A stretch of 64,000 nt of DNA from positions 1 to 64,000 of the forward strand of contig JBEKCB010000010.1 of the NCBI GenBank assembly GCA_050015075.1. Reading direction: 5' to 3'. Made by a program: the position numbers and the translations under genes. This DNA is from Candidatus Brocadiia bacterium. GTDB lineage: Bacteria > Planctomycetota > Brocadiia > CAIUPP01. This document shows positions 39,353-58,719 of the stretch, piece after piece. Each line of letters opens with the position of its first letter. Within the stretch, counting starts at the first letter, position 1. Under the pieces are notes generated by a model that ran no database searches, was not told the origin of the DNA, and saw nothing but the letters and a program-made list of their open reading frames with translations.

Positions 39353-42106
39353 TTATCGGTAATCGCCGTAAAGCACGAACGCTCCCCAGTAATAAGGATT
39401 CTCGTACTTCTTCATCATCGTAAGCTGCGCCTTTTGAAGCGCTTCAGACTTCGTGAGCCCTGCCAGGAGGTTCTTGTAGAAGAGTTCCATAAGCTCTGCG
39501 GTCGCGCGGTCGTCCACGCACCAGAGGCTCGCCAGGACGCTCGGCGTGCCGGCATACAGGAAGGCGCGCGTCATGCCCATGAACTCGAACCCGCTTCCGG
39601 TGACCTCGCCTGTGCCGGTATTGCAGGCGCTCAGGGTAACCAGGCCGGCGTCGAGGTTCAGATCGAAGATCTCCCGCACGGTGAGCACGCCGTTGTTTTC
39701 ATTATCCCCCGCCAGCCGAAGATTCGAGAGCATCGGCTCCGTCTGATCCATGACGCCGTGACAGGCCAGGTGCAGCACGTCGTAACCCGGAGACAGCTTG
39801 ACGAAGGCGCTCTTGCTCGCCTCGGCGCCTCGCAGGAGGACGCTCTGCGGGAATAGCTTCCCCACGGACTCCGCCTCGACCTCCGCGAACTTCAGTACCG
39901 AGCCGGCCTCCACCAGTTGCGGATTGGCAAGGATCAATGCCTTTTCCATCTTCGGTTTACGTTTTGCCTGACAGAACTTCAGGACAGATCCGCTGGGCGC
40001 GCAGGAGATCGAATAATCCTCCAAGAGATAACGCCCGTTCTCGTCCTTCAGGCAGGCGAACGGGACCAGGTTCATGCCGCCGTATGGCACAATGATGATT
40101 TGCTTCGTTTTTATATAGGGCCTGACGGGTTTGAAGAATTCTTTGTACAGTTCTTGACAGGCTTTGTCCCAGTCTGGATCGGCCCGGGCCTTGGCGGCGG
40201 AATTATCGCCGGCTTTCCGGAAACGCTGGCACAGGCGCTGAACTCGATCATACTGAAAGTCCACACCATGAATGACCTGGAAGCTGTCTCGTGTGACAAT
40301 AGCAATGAAACACTCGTCGTCCTCCCCATTGATCCCTGGCCCGGTTTGGCCGGAATACTCGATCAGCGTGGCCTCGCCGAGGATTTCCTGGATCTGCGGC
40401 AACGTCAGCGGGTCCACCCGGGTCAACGACGTGATTTCCTGATCGGCAAGGCGGACATGCGCTTGCACGGTTTCGAGCGCCTGCGACTGGACCGCCAAGT
40501 CGCGTCGGGCGCTGCGAAGCCCATCCGCCTGACCCGTTTTTTGCAGGAGCGCGACTTGATCCTGGAGTTGAGCCACTTGTGTTTGCAGAGCCTGCACTTG
40601 CATGCGCCGCTGATCATTGAGTTGCTCCCGTGTCTGAGTCGTCTTCCCGCCCATGAGAGCCAGGAACGACGCGGCCCTCGCCCGCTCCGAGGTGAGAAAG
40701 ACCTCCTCGTACCGGCCCAGATGCAAGCAGGCCGCTATTACGGAGCCATATGTGAAGCGGAAGCTCTCAAAACTCAAGGCGGCCCGTTTGGCGCGCTCAT
40801 CAATAACCCGGTTCACATCTTTCTCAAAGTTTGTGACCTGCGCCATTGACTGCTCGTATTCGGATTTGAAGTAATGTTGGTCCTTCTCCGGGTCGGGGTC
40901 AACGGGAGGATAACCACATTCGCGCAAGAGCGCATTCTCCTTATCATAATTCTTCATCTCCGCATATCTTAAGGCCATCGTGTACTTGCACAGCGTCGCC
41001 TCCCCGTTCCATCCGTGCTTTTCGGCGATGGCCAGGGCGTGCTCCAACTCGCCGATAGCCAAGTCGTAGCGAAACTGGCCGGACCAGACCCAATAACTGT
41101 TCGCCAGCACATGGTAAGCGTCGTAAAGCGTCCGATCATCGTTGCCCCGCTTTGCCGCTTCCACTGCAGCCAGAGCGTGCTCATGAGCGGGTTTGCCGCG
41201 CGGGCCCCGCACTTCCTCTACCCGGTTGGCGAAGCCATGATACATGAAAATTTGCGCGGCGGCCGCGTGCGCCCGACTTAGAAGGCAAGGGTCCTTGGAT
41301 TTTTCCGCTGCCGTGATGGCGCGCGGGATAAACGCTTCACCCCTGTCGTAGTCATTCATCACAGTGGCGCAATTGATCCGCGCGATCAGGGCCTCTGTGT
41401 GTTCAGGATTGATCGCGATCGCCTTGTCAAGCCAAAGCGCCTCCTGCGACGGCCTTGTGAGTCTGTTATACCCCTGGCTGACGCGGAAAGCTGAATCCGC
41501 CGAAGGCTTGTCCATGAACTCTTTCTCTGCGGCGCGGATGGACTTGGTCGCGTCGTCATTTCTCTTGATCCAGTACTCGACTTCCTGAACCTTAGCCTGC
41601 GCTCCGACGCGCTGGTAGTGCGCCAGCGCGCGAGGCGCGTCATTGGCGCCGGACCGGTCAGGAGTCCAGCGCGGGACGAAACCATAGTAGTAGTCGCCCA
41701 GGAGAATATCCGGTTGAGCAGCGTGAATGCGCACGTAACGCACCTTCGGGTACATCTCGGCGGCTAGGGAGAGAAATTTCTCGCCCTGGACTGTCGCGCC
41801 CGTTTTCATGCAAGAGTCGCCCAGCCGATAGAGCAGTTCGAAGTCCCGGCAACCCAGTTCGTAAGCCTTTTCAAAACTCAAGCGCGCCTTGAACGCGTCC
41901 TCCTCGACAAGCAAGAGCTCGAGTCCGTCGCGGACGCAGTTGTCCCACTTGGGATCATGTTGGCCGATTTCCATATACTCGACGAGGCTGCACTGATATT
42001 CGCATCTGGGCTGGTCCGGCTGGGGCGAGGCGAGACTGCCGCGCATGCAGAAACCGCCGGCGAACAAAACGGCCAATGTGAACACGGCCTTCTTCGCATT
42101 TTCCAC
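39353..42106 (-). CDS. Signal-peptide TPR-CHAT caspase-like protease (CHAT-1)
   Basis: IIVPYGGMNLVPF, catalytic HLACHG and VTLSACNTG, SLWCVDD, NPYYWGAF; TPR-like N-terminal half; hydrophobic N-terminus. Confidence 0.93.
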   Translation of the reverse strand: MENAKKAVFTLAVLFAGGFCMRGSLASPQPDQPRCEYQCSLVEYMEIGQHDPKWDNCVRDGLELLLVEEDAFKARLSFEKAYELGCRDFELLYRLGDSCMKTGATVQGEKFLSLAAEMYPKVRYVRIHAAQPDILLGDYYYGFVPRWTPDRSGANDAPRALAHYQRVGAQAKVQEVEYWIKRNDDATKSIRAAEKEFMDKPSADSAFRVSQGYNRLTRPSQEALWLDKAIAINPEHTEALIARINCATVMNDYDRGEAFIPRAITAAEKSKDPCLLSRAHAAAAQIFMYHGFANRVEEVRGPRGKPAHEHALAAVEAAKRGNDDRTLYDAYHVLANSYWVWSGQFRYDLAIGELEHALAIAEKHGWNGEATLCKYTMALRYAEMKNYDKENALLRECGYPPVDPDPEKDQHYFKSEYEQSMAQVTNFEKDVNRVIDERAKRAALSFESFRFTYGSVIAACLHLGRYEEVFLTSERARAASFLALMGGKTTQTREQLNDQRRMQVQALQTQVAQLQDQVALLQKTGQADGLRSARRDLAVQSQALETVQAHVRLADQEITSLTRVDPLTLPQIQEILGEATLIEYSGQTGPGINGEDDECFIAIVTRDSFQVIHGVDFQYDRVQRLCQRFRKAGDNSAAKARADPDWDKACQELYKEFFKPVRPYIKTKQIIIVPYGGMNLVPFACLKDENGRYLLEDYSISCAPSGSVLKFCQAKRKPKMEKALILANPQLVEAGSVLKFAEVEAESVGKLFPQSVLLRGAEASKSAFVKLSPGYDVLHLACHGVMDQTEPMLSNLRLAGDNENNGVLTVREIFDLNLDAGLVTLSACNTGTGEVTGSGFEFMGMTRAFLYAGTPSVLASLWCVDDRATAELMELFYKNLLAGLTKSEALQKAQLTMMKKYENPYYWGAFVLYGDYR

Positions 42107-42155
42107 GGCGCTGCTCCTGGTCGTCTCGCTTTCGGCTCAAAAAGCGATCCGACGG

Positions 42156-43715
42156 TTACTGGGACACGGAAACACTGAACTTCCGCGTTCTAGCATCGAA
42201 CTGAAGGCGCTGCTTGTTCGCCTGAAACCACGCCCGCAACTCTTCGTCGCTGCCGCGCTGATCGGTGTAAGTCAGCATCAGGTCTCGGGGCGAGAGGCGA
42301 TAGTCCTCCGGGATCCAAGGTTTGGAGAGGAAGTCCGCCGCGAATTCCAGCCCTTCGACCATGCCGTAGTCAAGCAACACCACGACCATTCTCGTGCGCC
42401 ACCTATTCCCGGAACGCAGCCATGCTTTTTGAATCAACGCCGGCGGCAGGACAAGGCCCGGGATGCGCTGGATGGCTTCATAAGTAATGCCCGGATCGGT
42501 GCCATAGGCGAAGTACCACTTCAGGTCTTCGTATGTGGCCGGATCGCGCAGGTCGGCGACCGCTTCGAGCCACTCCGCGGGCAGGTAATCCGGATGCTCA
42601 GCGAGGCGTTTAACCAGAATCGGCTTGGCTTCCTGGGTCCACTGACGCAAGCGCACGACCGAGGCAAGATCGTAATCCATCTCAAGCGATCCCAGAATCA
42701 GGGACTTGTCCTCGTCGGTGGCCATCCGTTCGATGCATCGAAGGCATGCCCGCCCGATGTATGGATCGGCCCGATTCAAAAGAAGGAGGTCCAGGTAGTT
42801 GTGGCCGACCGGCTCCAGGTAGGCCGCGATCCACTCCGAATCCGCGGGGTCGTCGGACGCGCGCGCGGCCTCTGCTACCTGCCGCAAGTACATCCGGACC
42901 GCGTCCCGGTCAGCGCCGGAGGGCAACCTGAGTTGTTCTGACTGGCCCGTTTTTTCGTCATGCGCCAAGTCGAGATTCCAAGGCAGCTTGACCCACGGGC
43001 TGTCGGAGTCTGTGCGAAACTTTTCGAGCAGCTTTTTGTATTCCTCTCCTTCGCGCAGAGTTTGTTGCAGCGACCAGAAACGCCGGCCGATGAGATAGTT
43101 GTTTCCAAGGTCTTCCCACGAGTCAAATGTGCTCTGCAAAGCCCGGGCGACAGGCATGATGCGCTCCCAGGCTTCGGCTTCCGACAGGTAGCCGACACAG
43201 TATCCCCAGCGGCATACCGAAACATAGCGGCAGTAGTCCCAACCCAGGATACTTTTCTTGCCCAGCCGCTTGTAATATTGCGCTGCAACCTCCATAGCAG
43301 AGTTCGCCTGCGCATTGTTCTTATTCTTCGCCCTGAGGGTGTTCAGCTCATCAGGAGTCAGCGCGGCGATGGTGGACCCCATCCTCTCAAACCGCGCGCG
43401 GTGTCCCTCTTGTTGGAGCCAGCGCAGCGTGTTAAGGAGGTCCTCGCGGTTCGAGACGCTCCACGATCCTCGGAGGGACATCTTCCACCCGCTGATGTCG
43501 CTTGCAGTCCTCTCGCACCCGGCGAGCAGGTCATGACGTCCATGGTTCCGTTCCGTGAGAAGTGCGCACGTCGCAAGCGCCCAGAGTTTTTGGTCACTGA
43601 GTTTGTGCAGCGAGGCAAGGTCCGCCGATCGCTCATCTTTGTCGGACGGCGTCCCGCCTTGCGCTGCCGCGCCAACAACGACCGCGCAAAAGAACAATGA
43701 GACAAATCGCATCAT
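42156..43715 (-). CDS. Secreted DUF1266 (YbeU/YbeR-like) protein with a C-terminal domain shared with 46615-48000 and 48119-49549
   Basis: Signal peptide; GWDYCR...RWGYCVGYLSEAEAW...FDSWEDLGNNYLIGRRFW; C-terminal LRDPATYEDL...WFQANK. Confidence 0.82.
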   Translation of the reverse strand: MMRFVSLFFCAVVVGAAAQGGTPSDKDERSADLASLHKLSDQKLWALATCALLTERNHGRHDLLAGCERTASDISGWKMSLRGSWSVSNREDLLNTLRWLQQEGHRARFERMGSTIAALTPDELNTLRAKNKNNAQANSAMEVAAQYYKRLGKKSILGWDYCRYVSVCRWGYCVGYLSEAEAWERIMPVARALQSTFDSWEDLGNNYLIGRRFWSLQQTLREGEEYKKLLEKFRTDSDSPWVKLPWNLDLAHDEKTGQSEQLRLPSGADRDAVRMYLRQVAEAARASDDPADSEWIAAYLEPVGHNYLDLLLLNRADPYIGRACLRCIERMATDEDKSLILGSLEMDYDLASVVRLRQWTQEAKPILVKRLAEHPDYLPAEWLEAVADLRDPATYEDLKWYFAYGTDPGITYEAIQRIPGLVLPPALIQKAWLRSGNRWRTRMVVVLLDYGMVEGLEFAADFLSKPWIPEDYRLSPRDLMLTYTDQRGSDEELRAWFQANKQRLQFDARTRKFSVSVSQ

Positions 43716-43773
43716 GGCGTCATCCTTTTTAGGCGCGCAAGTCCGCAACAACGCCTCAGACCGATACTTCCAA

Positions 43774-46590
43774 TCATCTATAGTCTCCGTACAACACAAA
43801 CGCTCCCCAGTAATAAGGGTTCTCATACCTCTTCATCATCACCAGTTGCGCCTGCTGCAATGCCTCGGCGCGGCCCATGGTTTTCAGGTTCTTGTAGAAT
43901 TCGGCCATCAGTTCGCTGGTCGCGCGGTCATCGAGCTTCCAGAGGCTGACCACGACCGACGGCGCGCCGGCGAGGAGCCACGCGCGGCTCATGCCGACGA
44001 GCTCGACCCAGCCGGTGGACATGCCGCCGGATCCGCTTTCGCACGCGCTGAGCACCACCAGGCCTGCCTTCACCGGATAGCTGCAGATCTCGCTGGCGGT
44101 CAGCCTGCCGTCGCTTTGATCGTCGGGCGCCAAAGCCAGCGCGGATTTCATCGGGTAATCCGCGTTCAGCAATCCGTGACAGGCGAAATGCAGGACGTCG
44201 GCCGTGGTCAGCGCCTGCTTGACCGCCGTCGCGGTGGCTTGCGCGCCGAGGAGCACGTTCGCCTTCGGGAAGACTTCGCGGATCGCGGCGGCTTCCATTT
44301 CGGCGAACTTGAGCGATGAGTTCGGGTTGGGCAGCGCGGGGTTGGCGATGACGGTGACTTCGCCGCCGACCCGGCGGTTCCGGGCCAGAGCATAGCGCAG
44401 GACGCCGAAGCTGGGGACGTAACTGACGCTGTGCTCCTCGAGCAGCAGCTTGCCGGCCGGGTCGCGCAGCAGGTGCATCGGCACTTGGACGAGCAGCCCG
44501 CCGGGAATGATGATCAGATGCTTGCGCGACTTGATGTCGTCGGCGACCGGCTTGAGGAGCAGTTCGTAGAGCGCGTCGTTGGCCTTGCGCAGTTCGGCGG
44601 GATCGGGCCCGGGCGCAGGCGTCTGGATGGCTTTGACGTAGAGTTGCACGATGGGCTCGATACCCGGCTTTGTGTCACCCGCATCCGGGAGGAAGAGCCC
44701 GCGGCAAGGGTAAACCTTGCATTCCGTGTCGGTCACAAAGGCAATGAAGCCTTCATCCACGAAGCGCACCCACGGGACGAAATACAGGAGGACCGCCGCG
44801 TCGGCAGGCAGCAGCGCCTGCATCTGCTTCACCGTCATGTGCGGCGGGATCTTCGCGCCGGTGACCTCGAGTTCGTCGGCCGCGACGTCGGCGCTGACCT
44901 GTTGAAGGGCGGTGGCCTGGACCTGAAGGTCCCGCTGGACGGATTCGACGGCGGCGGCATCGGAAGTCTGCCGCGCCAGGGCCAATTGGCGAGTGAGCGC
45001 GGCCACGTGCGATTGCGCCGCCGACTGGGCGTCCTTGCGCTGCGCCAGGGAGGCGGCCTTGCTCTCTTCGAATTTGGCGCCGAGGATCATGCCGAGGGTG
45101 CGGTTCAGCAGGCGCTCGGCGATCTCAACGGCCTCGTCCTGCTTCCCGAGGTGCATACAGGCCGTAATGGCATAGTCATATGCCCCGCGCTGGTTAGCGC
45201 CGACGACCTCGCGCTGGAGCCGTTCATTGGGCGCACGCAGCGTCATTTGCTCGAAACCGTCTATGCTGGGCTTCTCGTGGTCATAGATGTACTGCCAGTC
45301 ACCGCGCTGGACGCGAACGACGATGTGCGGTTGGATGCCGGCCTTTCGGGCCCATTCTTCGGACTCATCCAGCTTGCCCATAAAGGCGAGACGCTGCGCA
45401 ATCATGAACATCGAGTCGTGGGTGCGGTCGGTCCAATGATTTTTCTGCGCCAGCGCGAAGGCCTTTTCGTAATATTCGACGGACGTATCGCCTCCGACCC
45501 CGAGAAAGCCCATTTGGATAAAAGCGCGGAAGCGCAGGTTGTCATTGTTCAATTCTTCGGCAATGGCCCCGGCGCGCGCCGCCAGTTCACGGCGGTTGTA
45601 CTGGCGGAGCCTCTCGATGTTCGCCGGATCGGGATTTTCGAGGAGGTTATCCCAGACAAAAGCCGCCTGCGTGTGGAGCACCCAGAACAGACACTCGCGG
45701 TCCCCGGACTTCTCGACGATCTGGATCGCTTTAACACCGAAATCCTCCGCCTCTTTCCACTTCTTGACCCCGCACAAAATGAAGTGGTGCATGCGAACGA
45801 CGTCGGGGTCTTCGGGCGCATTGGCCAGGAGCACCTCCGAGGCCGGCAGGGCTTTGGCGAAGTCCATCCACTTGTGGTGATTCTCCCAATCATCAGCCCG
45901 GTGACCGTTCGCCGTGCCTGGCAGATTGTTAAATGGGCTCCAGTTGCGCTCGGCCTCCGCTTCAAGGACTTTAAGGACTTTCCTGGCCGCGGCCACGCTG
46001 GGTTCGGCGGCGGCTTTCGCCAATGTGTCTGCTTTTTCCTCTTCACCTTTGGCGAGGGACTCTATCGCCGGCAGGTTATCCGCCAACTGCTGCTTCTCGG
46101 GGCAGTCCGGGTAGGCCTCCAGCGCCGCGCGGACCAGCTTGCCGGCTTCCACCACTTCCGCCGGCCGTCCCTGGCCGAGATCAGCGTAGGCCTGCCATTG
46201 CAGGCATGCGCCGCGCACCCAGGTGCGCACCCACTCGGGCCGGCCGGGCTCTGCGGCGGCCGCAGCGCCCTTGCCCAGGATGTCGTGGCTCGCGGACAGG
46301 TCGTTCGATTCGAACAGGAGGTATCCATACATGAGGAGCACCGTCGGGTCTTTGGCGCCGCCCTCGATGAGCGGCTTCAATTCCGCCAGCGCTTCGTCAC
46401 GATTCTTCCTGAGCGCGAGCGCAGCCTTGTAAACGGCTGCATCAACCTTGAGGTCCGGCTCGCCGTAGGCGGAGTAGAGACTGTACCAACTGAATTGGGA
46501 CCAGAGGGTGATCCGGTACCCTTGGTCAGCACTCGCGGCCACGCTCGTCATTCCGAGCGCCAGTGCGAGTGCAATCATTTTGAAGCGCAT
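43774..46590 (-). CDS. Signal-peptide TPR-CHAT caspase-like protease (CHAT-2)
   Basis: Clear signal peptide MRFKMIALALALGMTSVAASA; HFACHG, VVLSACESG, SLWKLDD; C-terminus YENPYYWGAFVLYGDYR identical to CHAT-1. Confidence 0.93.
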   Translation of the reverse strand: MRFKMIALALALGMTSVAASADQGYRITLWSQFSWYSLYSAYGEPDLKVDAAVYKAALALRKNRDEALAELKPLIEGGAKDPTVLLMYGYLLFESNDLSASHDILGKGAAAAAEPGRPEWVRTWVRGACLQWQAYADLGQGRPAEVVEAGKLVRAALEAYPDCPEKQQLADNLPAIESLAKGEEEKADTLAKAAAEPSVAAARKVLKVLEAEAERNWSPFNNLPGTANGHRADDWENHHKWMDFAKALPASEVLLANAPEDPDVVRMHHFILCGVKKWKEAEDFGVKAIQIVEKSGDRECLFWVLHTQAAFVWDNLLENPDPANIERLRQYNRRELAARAGAIAEELNNDNLRFRAFIQMGFLGVGGDTSVEYYEKAFALAQKNHWTDRTHDSMFMIAQRLAFMGKLDESEEWARKAGIQPHIVVRVQRGDWQYIYDHEKPSIDGFEQMTLRAPNERLQREVVGANQRGAYDYAITACMHLGKQDEAVEIAERLLNRTLGMILGAKFEESKAASLAQRKDAQSAAQSHVAALTRQLALARQTSDAAAVESVQRDLQVQATALQQVSADVAADELEVTGAKIPPHMTVKQMQALLPADAAVLLYFVPWVRFVDEGFIAFVTDTECKVYPCRGLFLPDAGDTKPGIEPIVQLYVKAIQTPAPGPDPAELRKANDALYELLLKPVADDIKSRKHLIIIPGGLLVQVPMHLLRDPAGKLLLEEHSVSYVPSFGVLRYALARNRRVGGEVTVIANPALPNPNSSLKFAEMEAAAIREVFPKANVLLGAQATATAVKQALTTADVLHFACHGLLNADYPMKSALALAPDDQSDGRLTASEICSYPVKAGLVVLSACESGSGGMSTGWVELVGMSRAWLLAGAPSVVVSLWKLDDRATSELMAEFYKNLKTMGRAEALQQAQLVMMKRYENPYYWGAFVLYGDYR

Positions 46591-46614
46591 GGGCGGAGTC
46601 CTTTCTGCGGTTTC

Positions 46615-48000
46615 TTACGGTGCCGGCACGAACCTTCGCCGGTTCTCGTCGAACGCAAGTTTCCCTTTATTGGCTTCAAACCATGCGTGGATATCCTTGT
46701 CCGACCCGCGCAGGCCCGTCCGTTCGCGTATTGCCTTGCCCAACTTTTCACTGTACCAATCATTTGTGGCCGGCGAATCAAATCTCGCCACAGCGAATTC
46801 CAGTGCATCCATGAAGCCGTAATCCATGGCCGCCGCGGCCACCTGGCACCGGAACTCTGCTTTGATGCCGGTCCACGACTTCGAGGCAGTCCACACGCGT
46901 GCGACAGCGTCCTTTAACTGAATGCCGGGCAGATTCTTGATGTCGTCGTAAATATTGAGGCCGTTCTGGTTGTTCTCAAAATGCCAGACGAGGTCATCAT
47001 AGGCGGCAGGATCGCGCAGTGCGGCGGCAGCGTGCAGGACCCCCACGTCCGTGTACGGCGAGCGCTCCGCGATGCGCTCCAGGAGGAATGGGCGCATCTC
47101 CTGAATCCATCCCAGGCGCTGCATGGGATCGGCAAGGAATTCCCGGAGGGGCAACCATTTCAGCAGCAACGCCTTGTGCTCGGGCCGCACCAGGCTCTTC
47201 ACGGCCGCCTCCACGTCATTGTGAGTTATCAATATCTGCAGGCCGGAGGTCACGTTGGTGCCCCAGATTTCAAGGAGCACGTCGAGGTTCTCCGGCCCCA
47301 CCTTTTCCAGCATAGCGATTTCCGGGTCGTTCCATGCGGGGGCGGGTCTCTTAACGGCCTGCAAAAGGACCTGACGGGCGTAGGCGCGCGCCTGTTCCTT
47401 GGTCGGATGGGAGGGCAAGGTGAGCGCGGCCAGGTGACTGCTTTGTTCCTGTTGGACCGCGAGTTGCTTTTTGGCCTGCTGCAGACCGGACTCGGCCTCC
47501 TTGCGGATCTGTTCGTCAACCTCGGGCGCGCGGATGGAGAGCGCCAGTTCGAAGGACTCAACAGCCTCTTTATATTTGCCGCGTGACTGGTAATTCCATC
47601 CCTGCAAATTCTCGCAGTAAAAGCGAATGAAGTCCAGTTCCGGTTTTCCCGCGGAACGCGCGAGCGCCAATTTGAAACGTTCGACGTTGGTGCCGTAGTT
47701 GTTGCCGGTCAGGGCTAGGTTCCGGGCGTCAATGAAGAGCGTGACGGGGGAGCGGCAGCCCGCCGCGTACGCCTTCTCCAGCGCCTCCACCGAAAGGGCC
47801 AACTGCGCCGAGTCTGTGCGGCCGGTCTTTGGGTCGTACGCCTTCGCCCAGTGGTCAATCCCCTCGCGGACAAGGGCGTCCCACTTCGGGTCCGTATCGC
47901 CGAGTTTCTGATACTTCTCATACCACCAATTTGCATCTTGGCCGAAAGCCGTCGCCGAGAGCAGAAATACCAGCATCGAGAATGCGAAACGGAGTTTCAT
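46615..48000 (-). CDS. Secreted TPR-containing partner protein A
   Basis: Signal peptide ending TAFG; DPKWD motif; TPR GKYKEAVESFELAL; shared C-terminal domain. Confidence 0.85.
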   Translation of the reverse strand: MKLRFAFSMLVFLLSATAFGQDANWWYEKYQKLGDTDPKWDALVREGIDHWAKAYDPKTGRTDSAQLALSVEALEKAYAAGCRSPVTLFIDARNLALTGNNYGTNVERFKLALARSAGKPELDFIRFYCENLQGWNYQSRGKYKEAVESFELALSIRAPEVDEQIRKEAESGLQQAKKQLAVQQEQSSHLAALTLPSHPTKEQARAYARQVLLQAVKRPAPAWNDPEIAMLEKVGPENLDVLLEIWGTNVTSGLQILITHNDVEAAVKSLVRPEHKALLLKWLPLREFLADPMQRLGWIQEMRPFLLERIAERSPYTDVGVLHAAAALRDPAAYDDLVWHFENNQNGLNIYDDIKNLPGIQLKDAVARVWTASKSWTGIKAEFRCQVAAAAMDYGFMDALEFAVARFDSPATNDWYSEKLGKAIRERTGLRGSDKDIHAWFEANKGKLAFDENRRRFVPAP

Positions 48001-48104
48001 GTCAATCCCTCATTTGTCATCACCGGCTTCAACTCCGCCAGCGCCGCGCCACGGACCTTCCTGAGGCCGAGCGCCAGTACGAGGGCGATCATTTTGAAGC
48101 ACAT
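47997..48104 (-). pseudogene. Internally deleted remnant of a CHAT-2-like 5' end (35 codons)
   Basis: MCFKMIALVLALG-LRKVRGAALAELKPV matches CHAT-2 MRFKMIALALALG[46 aa]LRKNRDEALAELKPL; the upstream AAAGGACT RBS region is also conserved. Confidence 0.85.
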
Positions 48105-48118
48105 GGGTGAAGTCCTTT

Positions 48119-49549
48119 TTACGGAGTTGGCACGAACATTCGCCTGTTCTCGTCGAACACGAGTTTGCCTTTATTGGCTTGAAACCATGTGCGGATATCG
48201 TCGTCCGATCCACGCTGGCCGGTCCGTTCGCGTATCGCCAGGCGCAATTGGTCATTGTTCCATTTGCCCAACTCCGGCGAACCCAATTTCGCGACGGCAA
48301 ATTCCATGGCTTCCGTCACGCCGTAATCCATGGCCGCACGTGCCATCGAGTACCGGCGGGGTGCCCTCCAGTCGGTCCATGACTTCGATGCCGCCCACAT
48401 ACGCACCACTGCGTCCTTCAACTGAATGCCGGGCAGATTCTTGATGTCGTCATAAATATTGGCGCCGTTCTGGTTGTTCTCAAAATGCCAGACGAGGTCA
48501 TCATTGGTGGCAGGATCGCGCAGTGCCGCGGCGGCCTGCAGGACTTCCACACACGTGTACTGTGAGCGCTCCGCGATGCGCGCCAGGAGAAATGGGCGCA
48601 TGTCCTGGCCCCATCCTTTGCGCTGCATGATCTCGACAAGGTCTTCCCGGAGTGGCAGCCATTTCAGCAGCACCGCCTTGTTCTCGGGCCGTACAAGGCC
48701 GTCCACAGCAATCTTCACAAAGTTGTCAACCCTCACGCTCTGCAGTCCTCCGGTGGTCCCCCAGATTTCGAGGAGCACGTCAAGGTTCTCCGGCCCCACT
48801 TTTTCCAGCATGGCGATTTCAGGGTAGACCAGGTCAAGGCGCTCCCGCGCCACTTTGTCCAGCATTGCGATTTGCCCAGGGCTGCTTCCGCCTTGCTTCC
48901 TGCCGATCAGGAGAAGAACCCCGCGGACGTATGCGCACGCCTGTTCCTTGGTCGGATGGGGCGGCAAAGTGAGAGCAGCCAGTTGGCGGCTTTGCTCCTC
49001 GTCGGCCGCCACTTTCTCCCTGGCCTGCTGCAGACCGGCCCTGGCTTCTTTGAGAATATCCTCCTCGACATCGGGCGAGCTGAGCGACAGCGCCATCTCG
49101 AAGTACGGGATAGCCTCCTTGTACTGGCCCCCGCGCGCGTATCGCCATGCCAGGGCATTTGCGCAAGAGATGCGAACGAAGATGAGATCCGGCTTGTTCT
49201 CGGTCCGCTTGAGCGACTCGTCAAAGCGAACAAACACCGTCGTGCCATCGTTGTTGACCTGAGCGAGGTTCCGCGCGTCAATGAAAAGCGCGATGGGGCA
49301 GCGGCAACCGGCCGCGTAGGCCTTCTCCAACGCCTTCACCGAAAGCGCAAGTTCCGCCTGCGGGTTGCCGCCCGTCGTCGCATTTCCAGCCGCCTCCCAA
49401 TGGTCAATCCCCTCGCGCACGAGCGCATCCCACTTCGGGTCCGTCTGGCCGAATTTCTGGTACTTGTCATACCACCAATTCGCGTCATAGCCGAAGGCCC
49501 GCGCCGAGAGAAGAAAGACCAGCGTCATGAACACGGGGCGCAGTCTCAT
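48119..49549 (-). CDS. Secreted TPR-containing partner protein B (paralog of A)
   Basis: DANWWY.KYQK.G.TDPKWDALVREGIDHW and long near-identical DNA blocks shared with 46615-48000. Confidence 0.85.
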   Translation of the reverse strand: MRLRPVFMTLVFLLSARAFGYDANWWYDKYQKFGQTDPKWDALVREGIDHWEAAGNATTGGNPQAELALSVKALEKAYAAGCRCPIALFIDARNLAQVNNDGTTVFVRFDESLKRTENKPDLIFVRISCANALAWRYARGGQYKEAIPYFEMALSLSSPDVEEDILKEARAGLQQAREKVAADEEQSRQLAALTLPPHPTKEQACAYVRGVLLLIGRKQGGSSPGQIAMLDKVARERLDLVYPEIAMLEKVGPENLDVLLEIWGTTGGLQSVRVDNFVKIAVDGLVRPENKAVLLKWLPLREDLVEIMQRKGWGQDMRPFLLARIAERSQYTCVEVLQAAAALRDPATNDDLVWHFENNQNGANIYDDIKNLPGIQLKDAVVRMWAASKSWTDWRAPRRYSMARAAMDYGVTEAMEFAVAKLGSPELGKWNNDQLRLAIRERTGQRGSDDDIRTWFQANKGKLVFDENRRMFVPTP

Positions 49550-50412
49550 CTCAAGCCCTCCGATTCCAGAAAGCGGTTCAGGGTCTTGCGGAACCTGAAT
49601 CGGTCCACGAACCGCCCCAGGCCGGCGAAGCCGATTGTGGCAGCCCCAACAGCGTGCGTCGGCAGTCTCTGCTTCACGCAGAAAAACCAAGCGTATGCAA
49701 GCCCGAACCCAACGAGGGGCACCGTCAAGTCCGAGGCCAGGCTGGACATGCTTGGGATCATCCGGAGCAATCTGCCGGCGAGATCTTTATTTGCAGCCAC
49801 GGCATCTTCGTCGCCGGGGCATTGCCGCTCAATCTCCGAGAAGAATTCCTTGACCTCCCGGGCCTCTTTCTGCGCCGCTTCCTGGTCTTCCGCCGTGCAA
49901 AGCAATAGGGGGCCGATGTCGGTAGTGACGATCACGCCCCAATATCGGAGCGGGCCGAAGAAGTCGAATCCAAGGCCGAGGTTTATCTCGCGCACGTCCG
50001 GCAATTTCGAGGGCAACTGGAAGTCCGCGTGGTAATCTTTGCCTGAACTCAGGTAGTGGACAGCCCCGCCCGGTGACTGCCGGTCAAGGGTGACTTCGTA
50101 AGCTACGGTGTTCGTGCGCCGGCCGATCAGGAGCGCGCCGGCCGGGCCGAGGAAGAGCAGCGCCATGACAACATCGCTCCCATTGAGCGATAACAAGAAG
50201 AAACCGATCATCGCCAGTGAGACCAGAAGTTCGATATTAAGGAAGTAGAGGCCCGGCGCCGGAGGCAGGCCCAGGCCGTAAAGCCGGCGGCGGCTCATCG
50301 CCGAAAGCCGGCGCAGGCGCAGACCCAATTTGCCGTCAGCGCCGATGCCGCGCGGCATGTACCACCCCGCATCGCTCCCGTGAACCCACTTATACCACCA
50401 TCCCGGTTTCAT
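49546..50412 (-). CDS. Hypothetical membrane protein (~4 TM)
   Basis: Two pairs of hydrophobic segments; stop overlaps the partner-B start (ATGA). Confidence 0.65.
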   Translation of the reverse strand: MKPGWWYKWVHGSDAGWYMPRGIGADGKLGLRLRRLSAMSRRRLYGLGLPPAPGLYFLNIELLVSLAMIGFFLLSLNGSDVVMALLFLGPAGALLIGRRTNTVAYEVTLDRQSPGGAVHYLSSGKDYHADFQLPSKLPDVREINLGLGFDFFGPLRYWGVIVTTDIGPLLLCTAEDQEAAQKEAREVKEFFSEIERQCPGDEDAVAANKDLAGRLLRMIPSMSSLASDLTVPLVGFGLAYAWFFCVKQRLPTHAVGAATIGFAGLGRFVDRFRFRKTLNRFLESEGLR

Positions 50413-50447: not shown

Positions 50448-50771
50448 CTACGGTTCCGTCGTGTACATGTCGCTCCCGACGCTATCGCGCAAGAGCTGTT
50501 TGAGACGTGAGCGCAACAGCAGATGGTCTCCGAATCTGTTGAGTCCGGTCCACCCTACAAGCAGTGGAATGATGGCAAAACTAGGCACACGGACCCGGTC
50601 CGCCGAGTTGCACGCGATGAGTAGAAAAAGGCCGTTGCCGAGGCAGGCCACTAACGAGTCAAGAATGAGGTCCCATCCGCTCGGCTTCATCCGGCGTAAC
50701 CGCTCGACGATGACTGAAATATCTGCTTGCACCGCACTACGGGCTTGCTTGGCGTTATCACTCTCCGTCAT
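50448..50771 (-). CDS. Small 2-TM membrane protein
   Basis: ATGA overlap with the upstream gene; two hydrophobic segments. Confidence 0.6.
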   Translation of the reverse strand: MTESDNAKQARSAVQADISVIVERLRRMKPSGWDLILDSLVACLGNGLFLLIACNSADRVRVPSFAIIPLLVGWTGLNRFGDHLLLRSRLKQLLRDSVGSDMYTTEP

Positions 50772-51775
50772 GGCTTTTTCTCCAGAGTCGTGTCGCCTTT
50801 CACCTCAAACTCAAAACTCCCCTCCGCCCACGCCGTCTCGTCCAGGCCCTTGATGGTGATGGCCAGGTCGCGCGTGACAGAGCCTTCCGTCTTCGGGTCG
50901 AGCGAGCGGAAAGCGCTGACGTTATACTGCTCGGGCAGGAGCGGAACGTTGTTCTCCGTGGCGAAGATTTTCAACTTCTCCAGGCCCGCGGGGCCTTCCG
51001 CCTTGATGGTGAAATTCTGGAAGCGGCCGGGGATGCTGTAAACCTCGTCCTTCTTGACGTAGTTGGTGGCGTAGAACCGATTCGGGAAGAGGACGGTGAT
51101 CTGGCCGCTGCTGCCCATGTTGAAGATGGTGACGTAGCAGGAGCGGTCGGCCTTGAACTTGATGACCAGCTCATCGCCGACTTTGTATTCGGTCTTGTCG
51201 GTCCAGACCGAGATACTGAACCGCTCCTTGTTGCTCTGCTTGACCTTCTCGATGTCCTCCCAGAGCGGCGTAGTGGGCGTCTTGATCCGCTTGTCCAGCA
51301 GGAAACTCTCCTGCGCGACGACCTTCGACTGCGTGTCCACGATGCGCAGCGTCAACTGCAACTTGTGCCCCAGGTCCACGGTATGGCCGAAGATGAATGC
51401 GTTCACGCCGGCGATTGTTCCCAACTCCGGCGCCGTCGCCGGATCGAGCATGCCCTTCTCGGAGAGCTTGTGCTCCTCGACGATCTGCGCCAGCTTCTCG
51501 CGCTCCAGGAGGTCGACCTTCCCGCTCTTCGCGAGGTCCATAAACAGCTCATCGGCCAGCAAACGCCCCTCGACCGAGAAACTGCCGTCGAGGTAGCTGA
51601 ACGGCAGGATCGCAATCCGATTGCCGCCGAGCTTGGGAACGGAGGAGATGACGAAATCGGAGAGCGCGGCAACCTGTTTCGCGCTATCGGCCTGGCTCTC
51701 CTGCGCCGACGTTCCACTTGCGGCGCTGCAAGCGAGCAGAACCAGAACGACCAGCGCGTGCTTCGACTGTGTCAT
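50768..51775 (-). CDS. Secreted FlgO/CsgG-like + DUF4384 protein
   Basis: Signal with possible lipobox LLAC; IAILPF, LLEREKLAQIVEEHKLS..G..D; DUF4384-like VWTDKTEYKVGD...CYVTIF...VLFPN...GPAGLEKLKIFAT. Confidence 0.85.
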   Translation of the reverse strand: MTQSKHALVVLVLLACSAASGTSAQESQADSAKQVAALSDFVISSVPKLGGNRIAILPFSYLDGSFSVEGRLLADELFMDLAKSGKVDLLEREKLAQIVEEHKLSEKGMLDPATAPELGTIAGVNAFIFGHTVDLGHKLQLTLRIVDTQSKVVAQESFLLDKRIKTPTTPLWEDIEKVKQSNKERFSISVWTDKTEYKVGDELVIKFKADRSCYVTIFNMGSSGQITVLFPNRFYATNYVKKDEVYSIPGRFQNFTIKAEGPAGLEKLKIFATENNVPLLPEQYNVSAFRSLDPKTEGSVTRDLAITIKGLDETAWAEGSFEFEVKGDTTLEKKP

Positions 51776-51799: not shown

Positions 51800-54700
51800 T
51801 CATCTTGGGTTTCCCTGCGGCGTCACGGCCGCGGCGGCCGCATTGACCTGAAACTCATCCACCGGAACCGTTATCCAGGTTCCGTGTGCGATCACGGCGA
51901 CGCAGCCGTTCCCGCTCTCATCTTCCGCGGTACTTCCTTGTCCCTCATCCAGCGGAAGCAGCATCACGGTGCTCGGGAGTTTCGTCAGCCGGATCGGCGG
52001 CGTGAAGTCCTCCTTGTAGAGCGCCTCGTTGCTCAGGCGCGCTCCGGCGATCCGGCCGTTGAACCGGCGACCGATCAGCAGGTTGTTGTCATTGGTCGTC
52101 AATTGAGGTTCCTCGGCGCACGCCGACACTTTCCGGCCGTTGATGTAGTTGCGGAGTTCCTGCCCATCGAAAACCATCGCAATGTGCAGCCAAGTCTTCG
52201 TCGGGAGCGGATAGTACGTATTCTCAGGCGAAGGCTTCCAGTTGAACGGCGCAACATCCGACTCGAGTTTGCCGTCAGGGGTGATCCGAAGCTGCCAGGG
52301 GCCGAGCTTCGGAGTATCGCGGGTCATAATAATGCCTCGCGCCGGATCATCGGCCCAGATCCAGGCTTCTGCGGTCATGGCCTTGGTCATGTTGAAGACA
52401 GGATTGTACTGAACGGCGATCTCGCCTTCATTTCCGTCGAACGAGATGACCGGACGCTGCGGAACGAGTGTGCCCTGCGGTCCGGGTTTTGGCGGCGGGT
52501 GTCTCATCTGCTCTTTGATCCGCCGTGTCTCCGCCGCTATCTGTTTTACCTCTGCCTCATGAGCCGGATCGGGCTGAAACTCATCCACCGGCACCGTCAT
52601 CCAGGTCCCGTTCACGATCGTGGCGATGCAGCCGTTCCCGCTCTCGTCTTCCGCGGTAATTCCTTGTCCCTCGTCCAGCGGAAGCAGCATCACGGTGCTC
52701 GGGAGTTTCGTCAGCCGGGCTGGCGGCGTGAAGTCCTCCTTGTAGAGCGCCTCGCTGCTCAGGCGCGCTCCGGCGATCCGGCCGTTGAAAAAGCGGCCGA
52801 TCAGCAGGTTGTTGTCATTGGTCGTCAATTGGGGTTCCTCGGGGCATGCGGACACTTTGTGGCCGTTGATGTAGTTGCGCAGTTCCCGCCCGTCGAAGAC
52901 CATCGCAATGTGTAGCCACGTCCGCGTCGGCAGGCGGCGGTAAGTGCTCTCGGGCGAGGGGTTCCAGTTGGCCGGCGCAACATCCGACTCGAGTTTGCCG
53001 TCAAGGGTGATCCGAAGCTGCCATGGACCGAGCTTCGGAGTATCGCGAGTCATAATCTCGCCATGGGTCGGATCATCTGCCCAGATCCAGGCTTCTGCGG
53101 TCATGGCCTTGGTCATATTATTAAAGACTGGGTTGTATCCAACGCGGATCTCGCCGGTGCTGGCGCTTTGGTCGAACGAGATGACCGCGCGCTGCGGAAC
53201 GGGTGTTCCCTGCGGCCCCGTTATTGGCGGCGGGCGTTTCATCTGCTCTCTGAACAGCTTCACCTCTGCCTCCGACCGCTTGACCTCTGCCTCTGACCGC
53301 TTCACCGCTTCCTCTAGCCGCTCGAAGGATGGGGCGCCTCCCTTATCGCGTACGGCGAAAACCGGGGTCGAGTCTTCGCCCGCAATTACTACCGCGTCCC
53401 TGCATTCCACGGCCAGCAACTGCTGGCCGAGAATGTCCTGCGCCCGCAGCGTAAGCGGCGGCTGATCGTTGAAGAACTCCACCTTCACCTGTGAGGATAT
53501 CACGTTGGGCCAATCGGGATCAGGCTCACATATAATCTTGTCGCCAAACACTCCGACCGGCCAATATTCGCGGACGGGCCCGCACGGCCAAGGGTCTTTC
53601 TTAGAGCGGGTGTAGGCGTGTTCGGTCAGGTAACAGATGCTATCGGTCGCGGGATCATAGAGGCCGATGCCTTGGATAAGGATTCGGTCGAAGCACCAGC
53701 GAGCGTGAGCGCGCTCGATATGTTCCAGCCGCTCGGATGCAAAGCTGATTTTTCGCGAGGCGGCGTCGAATTTCCAGAGTCCCCGCCGCGTTTCGTGCCC
53801 CTGCGTATTGTTGATGCCGAACCAGATGCAGTTTCGCACGGGATCAGACAGGATGTACGGCACGTCGTACGTGGGCAGCCCGTCAAACAGGTTTTGCGGC
53901 GCCTCGGATCGGCGGCACGAGCACAGTGTGGCGGAACGGCCTGTCTTCGGATCAAACTCAACGATTGCCCCAGGCGACGTCCCGAGGTACCACTTGCCGT
54001 TCAGACACGCAAATGACGTCAGTTTGAGTGACGGCAACCCATCGGCTTCTGTCCAAAGCCTCGTCTTTCCTTTCTCGAAGGTCACGATCCCTATGTCACT
54101 CATGGACGCGAGCCACTGTCCTGCCTCGTCCCGCGTCAAAACCGCAGTGCAATGCAGATTTCGCTTTGCCGCTGGCTTGAGCATAATCTCGCCGAGAATG
54201 CTGCGATTGCCCCCATCCAGCGGAACGGCCACGAGCCGAACGCGATCGCCTTGGTCGCCCTCGCTCCCCGCCTCAAGAAGAACTGCGCGATTGCCGTCAG
54301 GCTGGATCGCATTGACCCGGTAACCAGTCTCTGTCGTCAAGAGCTTCACGACGAACTGTTCCGGCCTGAGATCGGGCGCCTGCGGTTTGGGAGCGGGCGG
54401 AGCCGCCAGTCCCAGTTGCCTTTCCAGGAAACCTATATGTGACTTTGCATCTCCCTGGGCGTCAAGGTTGGGTGGAAAGGTGACATTGACTGTGTCCTGA
54501 AAGTCCTTCGCGATCTCGTAGGCTTCCCGGAAACGACCTTCGTTCTCAAAGGCTGACAACCAGAACTTAATGCAATTTGCCCAATTCCACTCTGACGCCA
54601 GCCTCGCATGCTCAAGACGAAGCATCGGACGAAGAATCGCATCCCCGTACTTGATAAGAAGGTCCGGGTCATTGTTATAGGTCCAGAGGAATATATCCAT

Positions 54701-56602
54701 CCATCTGTGCGCCCATAAACCGTCCCTCGCTAACGGATTTTCTTTTTCACCCGGCAGGATCGCGGGAATTTCGCGGGCCAGCATTTGAAGGCACGTCTCG
54801 GCATCCTTTGAGTATCCCCAGCCATCCTGGAACGCCGCCGCGTACGTGGCAAACCGCACCACCGGATCCGGGTGATTCATCAACCAGTGAAACGCCTCTT
54901 GAATGCCGGGATAGAGCGCCGAGTACGCCGCCTTCGGATCTTCCGACGGGAGAAGATTGTTGAACACCCGGGGAAAACATGCCTCCATGGCATATTTCAG
55001 AGGAACATATTTCCAGACTTGGCCCGTCATCCTGGGCGCGCCGGGCGGCGGATTCTCGATCTGGCCCACGACCTCCTGGATACTGGCCAGCCACTCCTCG
55101 GCGCTTCCCGCTATGTCGTGACCGTAGCGAAGACGTTCCGCCAGCAGATCCATCCAAACGTTCGCGGTGCCCTTTGTTCGACAGATTTCCGTTGCGATGG
55201 CCATCGCCTCACGATATTGACGCAGCCAGGCTTGCTGAAGTTCAGCGAAGAGCTGGCGGGCCTCGGCTGATCCTGTTTCACGGACGGCCCTCCTATAGCC
55301 GTATAAATCCTTATTGACATACAAATCGTGACCGCCCACCAGAAAGATCTGACTAAGCGAATTCCCGCAAAGTTCGCCTTCATCAACCTCGTGATTCTTT
55401 TCCCACCGACTGAGAACCTTATCGCGAAAACCTTGATATTGCGCCTTTTGATAGAGGACCAGCGCATGCAAACCCTCGATCGTTGCGTGTGTCCTGGCTT
55501 CCATGGGGAGTTCGCGATCATAGGCGCGAGTATCATAGAGTGCGACGCGAAAATACATCCCCTTCGCCCTTGCCACTATTTCGTCGGACGGATCCAGCGC
55601 CACAGCGGCCTGCGTACGGGCAATTACGCCGTCAGTGCCGAACGCGGATTCGGTTTCCGCCTGATTCATGAAGAGCTTGGCTTCCTCGGCCGGCGATAGC
55701 GTTCGAAGGCCGGCCGGTTCAGAGTTGAGTTTCTCCGCGATCTCGCTGACCATCTGCGTCCGTAATCCCGCAAGATTCTCAAGGGAACCGTTGATGTGGA
55801 CATACTCTGTCTTATCCCCGTTCAACGATTGCAACTCCACTGTGGCCACCACCTCATTCCGGGTTGCGCCGTAGGCTAATCCGCCCTTCAGAAGCACCGC
55901 CGAGGTTCGCAAAGCCACCTCCGCGCCGGCCAGCGTTTTTTCCGCGGTCAAGTGCTCGAGACGCTCGCGCTCCAGGACGATGACATTGGGCGAATTGGCA
56001 AGATCATTGAGAAGGAACATCGAAAGCATATCGGCCAGCGAATCGAGCGAGTCGTCCAAAGCCTCGCTTCGAAACACAAGGAGGGCCACGTACCGTCTGT
56101 TGTTCGGCGGATAGCTCAGCTTGCGGCTCGCCAGATCAATGAGCGACGTGACGCCGGACAAGTCGGTGAGCAGCGTCTCCTGCAACTGCATGCAGGAACA
56201 CAGGATGATCCCGGTGCGCGCTTCCACCGCTCGAATTCTGCAAGTGGGTCGCACGGACTCCTTCGCTGCCTCGAATAGTGCAGGCGGCGGCGGAGGAGCA
56301 TCAACGACCAGAAACATGTCTACGCCCAGTATTTGCCCGACCTGGATCGCTTTGCTCGGCTCCATGAGTCCTGCCGCCGACAACTGCTGCTCCGCCAGGA
56401 CCTTATTGATCAGCGCGCGCTCGACCAGCGTAACCTGCGATTCCTTCGACAGGCCCGCTTCGATGGTTGGCACAACGAAGTCCGCCAGCGTCGACTTGCC
56501 CTTTTCGCCGATCACCGCCACGCGGGTGGCCGCCGCCCATGCTGCGGAGGGCAGAGCGATCGCCAGCGCCACAATCAGCAAACCTTCTCGCACCCTTGCC
56601 AT
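51800..56602 (-). CDS. Large secreted protein: two CsgG/HfaB-like domains, helical region, probable beta-propeller, two LamG-like domains
   Basis: Signal peptide; LVERALINKVLAEQQLS and VLERERLEHLTAEKTL; TEADGLPS propeller motif; duplicated MTAEAWI...WLHIAMVFDG..LRNYING...FNGRI. Confidence 0.85.
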   Translation of the reverse strand: MARVREGLLIVALAIALPSAAWAAATRVAVIGEKGKSTLADFVVPTIEAGLSKESQVTLVERALINKVLAEQQLSAAGLMEPSKAIQVGQILGVDMFLVVDAPPPPPALFEAAKESVRPTCRIRAVEARTGIILCSCMQLQETLLTDLSGVTSLIDLASRKLSYPPNNRRYVALLVFRSEALDDSLDSLADMLSMFLLNDLANSPNVIVLERERLEHLTAEKTLAGAEVALRTSAVLLKGGLAYGATRNEVVATVELQSLNGDKTEYVHINGSLENLAGLRTQMVSEIAEKLNSEPAGLRTLSPAEEAKLFMNQAETESAFGTDGVIARTQAAVALDPSDEIVARAKGMYFRVALYDTRAYDRELPMEARTHATIEGLHALVLYQKAQYQGFRDKVLSRWEKNHEVDEGELCGNSLSQIFLVGGHDLYVNKDLYGYRRAVRETGSAEARQLFAELQQAWLRQYREAMAIATEICRTKGTANVWMDLLAERLRYGHDIAGSAEEWLASIQEVVGQIENPPPGAPRMTGQVWKYVPLKYAMEACFPRVFNNLLPSEDPKAAYSALYPGIQEAFHWLMNHPDPVVRFATYAAAFQDGWGYSKDAETCLQMLAREIPAILPGEKENPLARDGLWAHRWMDIFLWTYNNDPDLLIKYGDAILRPMLRLEHARLASEWNWANCIKFWLSAFENEGRFREAYEIAKDFQDTVNVTFPPNLDAQGDAKSHIGFLERQLGLAAPPAPKPQAPDLRPEQFVVKLLTTETGYRVNAIQPDGNRAVLLEAGSEGDQGDRVRLVAVPLDGGNRSILGEIMLKPAAKRNLHCTAVLTRDEAGQWLASMSDIGIVTFEKGKTRLWTEADGLPSLKLTSFACLNGKWYLGTSPGAIVEFDPKTGRSATLCSCRRSEAPQNLFDGLPTYDVPYILSDPVRNCIWFGINNTQGHETRRGLWKFDAASRKISFASERLEHIERAHARWCFDRILIQGIGLYDPATDSICYLTEHAYTRSKKDPWPCGPVREYWPVGVFGDKIICEPDPDWPNVISSQVKVEFFNDQPPLTLRAQDILGQQLLAVECRDAVVIAGEDSTPVFAVRDKGGAPSFERLEEAVKRSEAEVKRSEAEVKLFREQMKRPPPITGPQGTPVPQRAVISFDQSASTGEIRVGYNPVFNNMTKAMTAEAWIWADDPTHGEIMTRDTPKLGPWQLRITLDGKLESDVAPANWNPSPESTYRRLPTRTWLHIAMVFDGRELRNYINGHKVSACPEEPQLTTNDNNLLIGRFFNGRIAGARLSSEALYKEDFTPPARLTKLPSTVMLLPLDEGQGITAEDESGNGCIATIVNGTWMTVPVDEFQPDPAHEAEVKQIAAETRRIKEQMRHPPPKPGPQGTLVPQRPVISFDGNEGEIAVQYNPVFNMTKAMTAEAWIWADDPARGIIMTRDTPKLGPWQLRITPDGKLESDVAPFNWKPSPENTYYPLPTKTWLHIAMVFDGQELRNYINGRKVSACAEEPQLTTNDNNLLIGRRFNGRIAGARLSNEALYKEDFTPPIRLTKLPSTVMLLPLDEGQGSTAEDESGNGCVAVIAHGTWITVPVDEFQVNAAAAAVTPQGNPR
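51848..53235. repeat. Near-identical tandem duplication of the LamG-like domain (period ~726 bp)
   Basis: CTGAAACTCATCCACCGG starts at 51848 and 52574; long identical blocks follow both. Confidence 0.9.
53259..53306. repeat. 21-bp tandem repeat encoding (VKRSEAE)x2
   Basis: ttcacctctgcctccgaccgc / ttgacctctgcctctgaccgc / ttcacc. Confidence 0.85.
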
Positions 56603-56687
56603 CGCCCAACGTCCCTTCGGAATCGCATGTCGTTCCGCAAACTGCCGCCCGGCATGACGAGCGCATCGCTCCACGCAACGGCGTTTA

Positions 56688-58676: not shown

Positions 58677-58719
58677 GGTCCTGCCTCCTCCCAAAAATAA
58701 ATTTCGCTGCCCCTTGTGC

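Follow-up and report, generated by a model that had tools for sequence, protein, structure and literature searches.

Bacterial proteins that join a TPR region to a CHAT domain have been described in two settings that can be compared with the locus treated here. First, in DdvA, a periplasmic TPR-CHAT region lies within the anti-sigma factor itself, and the gene is encoded together with that of a sigma factor of the extracytoplasmic function (ECF) type; in the published account, DdvA is the only exported TPR-CHAT protein to have been studied, and both its signal and its substrates are unknown (PMC11506125). Second, in the type III-E Craspase, the TPR-CHAT protein Csx29 comes with its substrate Csx30, with Csx31 and with RpoE, and the C-terminal domain of some Csx30 proteins is DUF4384, as given in part of a preprint (bioRxiv 10.1101/2022.08.17.504292). 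Here we describe a stretch of 64,000 nucleotides (nt) from a Candidatus Brocadiia bacterium (assembly GCA_050015075.1, contig JBEKCB010000010.1, positions 1-64,000; the whole stretch is called the window below), in which the genes of two apparently exported TPR-CHAT proteases, CHAT-1 and CHAT-2, and a short CHAT-like fragment each follow a gene for a protein that ends in the same domain. Like DdvA, as far as the cited part of its description goes, the locus has a TPR-CHAT protein with a His-Cys dyad and a probable extracytoplasmic location, in a gene cluster that also encodes an ECF sigma factor and an anti-sigma factor of the zinc-finger type. Like Craspase, as outlined in the same part of the preprint, it has a TPR-CHAT gene beside a noncatalytic partner and an alternative sigma factor, and DUF4384 is also found in the same island (50768-51775). 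We consider it somewhat better than an even bet that the shared domain is a generic exported scaffold domain that became paired locally with CHAT proteases in this one island, largely by duplication, and that it is likely to act there as an adaptor.

All genes concerned lie on the minus strand, and they are transcribed in the order partner B, CHAT-like fragment, partner A, CHAT-2, DUF1266-headed partner and CHAT-1. By position in the window, the features are as follows.

39353-42106, minus strand: CHAT-1, a predicted exported TPR-CHAT caspase-fold protease of 917 amino acids (aa) (Pfam PF12770, E 6.5e-76); its segment related to the head of partner A is at 41714-41980 (residues 43-131).
42156-43718, minus strand: DUF1266-headed partner, 520 aa (Pfam PF06889, E 2.4e-47), with a putative signal peptide, DUF1266 at residues 81-247 and the HEAT-like domain at about residues 255-520 (window 42159-42956).
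43774-46590, minus strand: CHAT-2, a predicted exported TPR-CHAT protease of 938 aa (PF12770, E 1.2e-69).
46615-48000, minus strand: partner A, 461 aa (shared-domain alignments), with a putative signal peptide, a TPR-like head at about residues 22-185 (head segment 47430-47937) and the HEAT-like domain (window 46618-47418).
47997-48122, minus strand: 5' fragment of a CHAT-2-like gene, consisting of a ribosome-binding site and a 35-codon open reading frame (ORF) at 48104-47997 (DNA alignment and translation).
48119-49549, minus strand: partner B, 476 aa, a paralogue of partner A with no CHAT gene behind it.
49546-50412, minus strand: ORF of 288 aa, without a family match in Pfam and NCBIfam scans.

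CHAT-1 and CHAT-2 score 256 and 235.3 bits, respectively, against PF12770, whose cut-off is 24, and a search of the organism's own 4.64-Mb assembly with this model gave exactly these two matches. In an alignment of both proteins with 14 homologues from the phylum, H783 and C828 of CHAT-1 are invariant in 16 of 16 rows, and both thus contain the catalytic His-Cys dyad. The two are 35% identical over 684 residues (BLASTP E 2e-104). Proteins of this type are common: homologues of CHAT-2 occur in 88 of 400 genomes sampled from the phylum. When inspected by eye, the N-termini of CHAT-1, CHAT-2 and the three partners all show a charged stretch, a hydrophobic run and a small-residue motif, as in signal peptides, and partners and CHAT proteins would accordingly be exported to the same compartment. 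Partner A is separated from CHAT-2 by 24 nt and the DUF1266-headed partner from CHAT-1 by 49 nt. The 288-aa ORF and partner B share an ATGA stop/start overlap (49546-49549), as do the 35-codon fragment and partner A (47997-48000); this suggests a translational coupling kept through duplication. The partner and CHAT genes are probably cotranscribed; terminator-like sites are not enriched (7 found and 13.4 expected), and a scan for promoters and terminators gave nothing above the shuffled expectation.

The preliminary description of this DNA had the three upstream proteins ending in one domain, and this is confirmed. They align over the last ~260 residues with 72 invariant columns, and all of the motifs quoted in that description are present. 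In this domain, the DUF1266-headed protein is 35% identical to both A and B, and partners A and B are 63% identical over the whole protein and 74% identical in DNA. A profile built from the three C-termini finds only these three places in the assembly (E 1e-121 to 1e-151). A Pfam scan found no family over the last ~260 residues of the three partners, and no NCBIfam model matched the domain. An AlphaFold2 model of the domain of the DUF1266-headed partner, made from a 12-row alignment, is confident (predicted local distance difference test score 91.9, predicted template modelling score 0.85) and has 16 helices followed by a C-terminal beta-hairpin. When this model was compared with 48,161 chains by VIA-align, INTS4 came out on top (Z 9.1, root-mean-square deviation (rmsd) 6.8 over 221 residues), and Kap95 (Z 8.6, rmsd 5.0 over 236 residues), YibA of Escherichia coli (1oyz; Z 8.0, rmsd 6.5 over 232 residues) and the phycocyanin lyase CpcE/F (5n3u; Z 7.5, rmsd 3.9 over 143 residues) were also found. 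In the ESM Atlas, the only leads are HEAT-like, at 0.88-0.91, with the recognition value of the query below the threshold of the tool, and some relatives of the domain reach Pfam HEAT_2 weakly (29-33 bits, cut-off 27.7). Because of the structural matches to HEAT/ARM proteins and these HEAT_2 hits, the domain is called here a HEAT/ARM-like alpha-solenoid, on the strength of a predicted model, and of a distinct family that has no Pfam or NCBIfam model. Hydrophobic or structural residues occupy most of its invariant positions, a pattern that fits a module for binding better than an enzyme.

The heads in front of this domain differ. That they are DUF1266 or TPR had been proposed before, and the first assignment is secure (PF06889, 161.8 bits with a cut-off of 27, covering positions 1-175 of the 175 in the profile); the second is less so, since the best TPR match of the A/B head stays below the Pfam cut-off (20.6 bits, cut-off 27). 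Within partner B, moreover, about 18 residues are repeated in tandem in diverged form ('...IAMLDKVARERLDLV' before 'EIAMLEKVGPENLDVL'; 48779-48886, about residues 222-257). This repeat is missing from partner A, and the library protein P0005 has the same insert.

The domain itself belongs to a large family. A library of 1.84 billion proteins, clustered by representatives, was searched with the domain profile, and 761 representative clusters were found at E<=1e-3 and 253 at E<=1e-30. Among the best 150 representatives, 95 are no longer than 420 aa and 55 are longer. The N-termini of 40 short representatives typically consist of a signal peptide, lipobox or membrane anchor and then a coiled coil of ~40 residues, after which an 'LPxNPT' motif leads into the domain; stand-alone proteins of this build are the usual form. 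This motif marks the start of the domain, and 'RGSxxEL..W...NK..L.FD', which forms the beta-hairpin, marks its end. The 55 that exceed 420 aa were all put through a Pfam scan. PDZ was found in four of them, TPR in three, HEAT_2 in three, thioredoxin-like or redoxin domains in two, CarboxypepD_reg in two, and a BlaR1-type M56 peptidase (which occurs together with CarboxypepD_reg), Reg_prop and HHH_3 in one each. DUF1266 is also the head of one, P0002, which is 87% identical to the DUF1266-headed protein of the window, and none carries a CHAT domain (0 of 55). Further variants come from relatives in genomes, namely an SPFH head and two copies of the domain in tandem. These heads are of types typical of the cell envelope, and the idea that the domain is carried on interchangeable heads is thus borne out, by DUF1266 and TPR-like heads here and by PDZ, thioredoxin, M56 and SPFH elsewhere. 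With 761 clusters, a confident model, clear boundaries and end motifs, the family, delimited here as a large exported one, merits a database entry, and naming it would strip the label 'hypothetical' from many exported proteins. Two other genomes of the phylum have an ORF of 340-370 aa without a Pfam match that follows and overlaps a typical domain gene (locus L024, 7638-9793 and 11130-13309; locus L026, 7678-9842). The genome of L024 has this arrangement twice, and BLASTP at E 1e-6 did not group the ORFs of one genome with those of the other.

If the domain as such were the cognate partner of CHAT, as the preliminary description proposed, its genes should adjoin CHAT genes elsewhere, and a count of such homologues had been suggested as the check. 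Among 131 other genomes of the class, 12 have the domain, and all 12 belong to one family, which is not the window's own; of 400 genomes drawn from the phylum, 18 have it. A search of the three other genomes in the window's family found no copy. PF12770 was then searched for in 26 other domain-bearing genomes. Ten of them have CHAT, which then lies on a different contig or, if the contig is shared, no closer than 482 kb, and in the other 16 no CHAT match was found, one of these being a 100% complete genome with four copies of the domain. Three contigs are short, so that adjacency across a contig break is possible there; for each of them, a genome of the same genus whose contig is long has the two unlinked. 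A six-frame search of 22 domain loci (300 kb) detected no CHAT (positive control 22/22), and one of 20 loci around the nearest homologues of CHAT-2 (179 kb) detected no domain (positive control 20/20). Thus, in the genomes, loci and proteins examined elsewhere, the domain is unlinked to CHAT (0/26 genomes, 0/22 and 0/20 loci, 0/55 fusions): at the level of the family, the homologues are mostly unlinked, and the proposal is not supported for the domain as such. No neighboring gene is conserved across the domain loci either; apart from genus-level synteny, only sulfatases recur, at four loci, and as a clue to the role of the family these were set aside as uninformative. Searches of genome contigs with the shared-domain and head alignments found no related locus, and one of metagenome contigs with the shared-domain alignment found a single locus, which is 100% identical and from the same organism. 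A tblastn search of PLSDB plasmids with partner A gave no match. In the literature searched, there is no account of an exported CHAT gene paired with a HEAT-like or DUF1266 partner, and no paper on the function of DUF1266.

These results do not concern all branches of the family equally. A tree of 193 domain segments places the window's three copies in a clade of 11 rows with P0002, P0005, P0008, P0017, P0018, P0023, P0071 and P0085 (Shimodaira-Hasegawa (SH)-like support 93). The clade is recovered in a second tree of 51 rows, made from these 11 and 40 random library rows with the rows of genomic loci left out (SH approximate likelihood-ratio test, SH-aLRT, 98.7), and an approximately unbiased test does not reject a tree in which the window copies and their close representatives are one clade (p 0.245). 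A TPR-like head is present on every member except the DUF1266 pair and the fragment P0008. This head has about 90-150 aa and a 'DPKWD' motif, and it is common to A, B and six library proteins and, distantly, to the N-termini of CHAT-1 and CHAT-2. Indeed, the A/B head is homologous to the N-terminus of CHAT-1 (residues 43-131, BLASTP E 2e-6). By hhalign, the head alignment matches residues 1-250 of CHAT-1 with a probability of 95.8% (E 6.7e-9, 88 columns) and CHAT-2 more weakly (91.4%, signal peptide included), and a head profile without the signal peptide finds CHAT-1 at E 2.2e-9 and CHAT-2 at E 6.4e-4. The same module on a protease and in front of the HEAT-like tail of its neighbor would fit either a shared binding target or recombination between long-standing neighbors. 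The head profile matched none of the 22 domain loci, so that the absence of CHAT linkage applies to the other branches of the family, and a partnership with CHAT that is confined to the head-bearing subclade would be compatible with these data.

On this ground, a narrower form of the earlier proposal can be considered, in which the TPR-headed branch and its DUF1266-headed derivative would be the cognate regulator, inhibitor or substrate of exported TPR-CHAT proteases and would adjoin them in other organisms too. The gathering of the window copies in one well-supported clade, 11 of 51 rows, speaks for it, as does the homology of the clade's head to the CHAT N-termini, which suggests long co-residence and exchange; the order of partner and then CHAT is, moreover, kept in two pairs that are only about 35% identical. 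However, no second genome turned up that has such a pair, the 531 other genomes searched from class and phylum contain no member of the clade, their domain hits being without the head, and none of the eight library representatives in the clade is fused to CHAT. Partner B, in addition, is kept under purifying selection with no CHAT gene following it. We therefore regard this dedicated partnership as unlikely.

The repetition in the window also has to be seen in the light of its history. The module had been described as repeated three times; two complete modules are indeed present, but the CHAT gene of the third is only a fragment of 35 codons. The 118 nt between partners B and A hold a ribosome-binding site and the 35-codon ORF. 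Two stretches of this ORF can be aligned to the 5' end of CHAT-2, one to codons 1-13 and the other to codons ~59-74, with a gap of 138 nt between them; the match includes the ribosome-binding site, and about 15 nt upstream of the start codons of A and B are alike as well. The junction is crossed, with no difference in sequence, by contigs that stem from other public peat metagenome runs (X12, 47830-48322; X7, 47722-48449), so that the remnant is not an artefact of assembly. The anatomy of the remnant and the ~15 nt common to the upstream sides fit a single partial tandem duplication, in which the copied segment would have begun a little way upstream of the partner gene and reached CHAT-2 as far as codon ~75, and a small internal deletion would then have left partner B and the 35-codon remnant. 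On the alignments, this appears to be the simplest history; the loss of 2.6 kb from what was once a complete third CHAT gene is conceivable and needs an extra event. By their sequence similarity, A and B are recent paralogues, and the three modules are thus not three independent associations. The ratio of nonsynonymous to synonymous substitution rates between A and B is about 0.42, a value at which both genes seem to be retained, B with no CHAT gene next in line. An older relationship at the level of pairs may connect the DUF1266-headed partner and CHAT-1 with partner A and CHAT-2, both components being about 35% identical. Since the local repeat is mostly a matter of duplication, less weight can be put on its threefold occurrence.

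The same history leaves room for the opposite view, that the partners and CHAT proteins are unrelated exported proteins whose genes merely alternate, through duplication, in an island rich in genes for secreted proteins. The pairs are related by duplication, and their adjacency could have been inherited passively; the family has no conserved neighbor and does without CHAT in 16 of 26 genomes, among them the complete one with four copies, and the nearest CHAT homologues have no such upstream gene. Against this stand the short gaps between partner and CHAT genes, with an order conserved in two pairs as little as ~35% identical, the head module common to A, B and the CHAT N-termini, and the apparent destination of all five proteins in the same compartment. 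Mere neighborhood is thus, in our judgment, improbable.

The reading that we favor is that of a generic scaffold domain paired locally with CHAT proteases. The shared domain would be a noncatalytic protein-binding or scaffold module that is carried on many heads and is not specific to CHAT, and its threefold occurrence beside CHAT would be the local history of one 23.6-kb island. In this island, the partners would join the exported CHAT proteases in the periplasm as subunits of an adaptor or scaffold kind, and would recruit substrates or hold the protease in check. Because all of these proteins are apparently exported, their genes are probably cotranscribed, and the head is homologous to the CHAT N-termini, an adaptor or scaffold role is the most likely one, and a physical or functional coupling of partner and protease is plausible. 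A prediction of the complex between residues 250-917 of CHAT-1 and the domain of the DUF1266-headed partner scored 0.00 against a mark of 0.32 and, having no controls, weighs neither way. Several points count against this reading. The local coupling rests on adjacency in one genome, where the duplicated pairs count as one or two events. The contexts examined elsewhere belong to other subclades, so that the absence of CHAT there is silent on the subclade of the window. The signal peptides were judged by eye alone. As for the fold, Pfam gave no HEAT family at E<=0.1 in the three window partners, HEAT_2 (PF13646) included; the structural Z scores are in the range common for helical repeats (under about 13); and Foldseek found no match in the PDB at E<=1e-3, the best being designed armadillo proteins at E of about 0.03 (0.025 or worse).

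The string of genes to which the pairs belong is an accessory island, and its other main features are these.

38663-62290: accessory island of 23.6 kb, from the ECF sigma gene to CHAT-1 (comparison with a same-genus genome).
50768-51775, minus strand: predicted exported protein with a CsgG-like region (E 6e-8) and DUF4384 (PF14326, E 7.7e-24).
51800-56731: predicted exported protein of 1643 aa with a CsgG/LpoB-like N-terminal region and two LamG (Laminin_G_3) domains.
60312-61313, minus strand: single-pass zf-HC2 anti-sigma factor, 333 aa (Pfam).
61341-61913, minus strand: ECF sigma factor (Pfam), at the head of the same-strand string.

In a genome of the same genus (G001, contig C134), the sequence matches at 92% identity as far as window position 38662 and once more from 62291 onwards; the place of the island is taken there by about 2.2 kb of different DNA, with a different ORF of 502 aa. 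When this genome was searched, no CHAT, shared domain or 1643-aa protein was found. Since the string is missing there between matching flanks, it is regarded as an accessory island. The G+C content is 0.57-0.63 inside the island and 0.63-0.68 upstream of it, and no tRNA gene was found between 37 and 64 kb. The stretch is present in many peat metagenome runs. The LamG repeats of the 1643-aa protein are ~250 aa long and nearly identical, each following a proline-rich linker, and a genome of the same family (G002, contig C60) has at least four tandem paralogues of the N-terminal part of this protein. CsgG/LpoB-like regions occur in three proteins of the island (50768-51775, 51800-56731 and 57615-58730). 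Upstream of the island, there is a BatA/VWA/DUF58 set of the aerotolerance-operon type (24720-31656), which lies in the region that the window and the same-genus genome have in common.

How far, then, does the locus go with the systems named at the outset? As in the DdvA type, a cognate ECF sigma gene is found in the same cluster, on the same strand and in the same island (61341-61913). In DdvA, however, as that part of its description has it, the CHAT region belongs to the anti-sigma factor, whereas the CHAT proteins of the window are separate and have a signal-peptide-like start of their own. The single polypeptide of zinc anti-sigma domain, membrane helix and TPR-CHAT was not found, CHAT-1 and CHAT-2 being without zf-HC2, and the sigma/anti-sigma pair lies 14-22 kb upstream in the string. 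No HEAT-like partner gene is mentioned for DdvA in the same part of PMC11506125. Craspase, to the extent that its preprint account was used, differs in that Csx29 is cytoplasmic and bound to Cas7-11, and in that the partner in the window is a HEAT-like solenoid and not Csx30. With the Csx29 model (NCBIfam NF041237), the window CHAT proteins score only 47.4 and 53.2 bits, the cut-off being 300, and Pfam scans of the window genes between 24.7 and 64 kb named no Cas protein, no search having been aimed at Cas7-11 or CRISPR repeats.

A third likeness is with separase and securin, as cited in part of PMC11506125. Separase is also a CHAT-related caspase-fold protease with a helical-repeat N-terminus and a separate binding protein, and CHAT-2 bears a separase-like mark in its Pfam match to Peptidase_C50 (E 2.4e-9). 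Unlike the proteins of the window, separase and securin are, by the same passage, eukaryotic and cytoplasmic or nuclear, and securin is an unstructured pseudosubstrate and not a solenoid. From these likenesses, a bolder scheme could be drawn, in which the TPR-headed, HEAT-tailed subclade and its DUF1266 offshoot would be dedicated periplasmic adaptors or inhibitors of secreted TPR-CHAT proteases, an extracytoplasmic counterpart of separase-securin or Craspase-Csx30; the ECF sigma and anti-sigma factors would switch the proteases on, and the heads would set targets or latency. We offer it by analogy and think it doubtful. If true, however, a partner that is bound or cut by an exported CHAT protease would give a handle on the role of periplasmic caspase-like enzymes. 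The partner domain itself finds its nearest likeness among HEAT-like proteins of bacteria, such as HEAT_2, HEAT_PBS, YibA and CpcE/F, with which it would share an all-alpha solenoid of paired helices (Z 7.5-8.0), and it differs from them as a distinct, apparently exported unit of ~260 aa with end motifs of its own.

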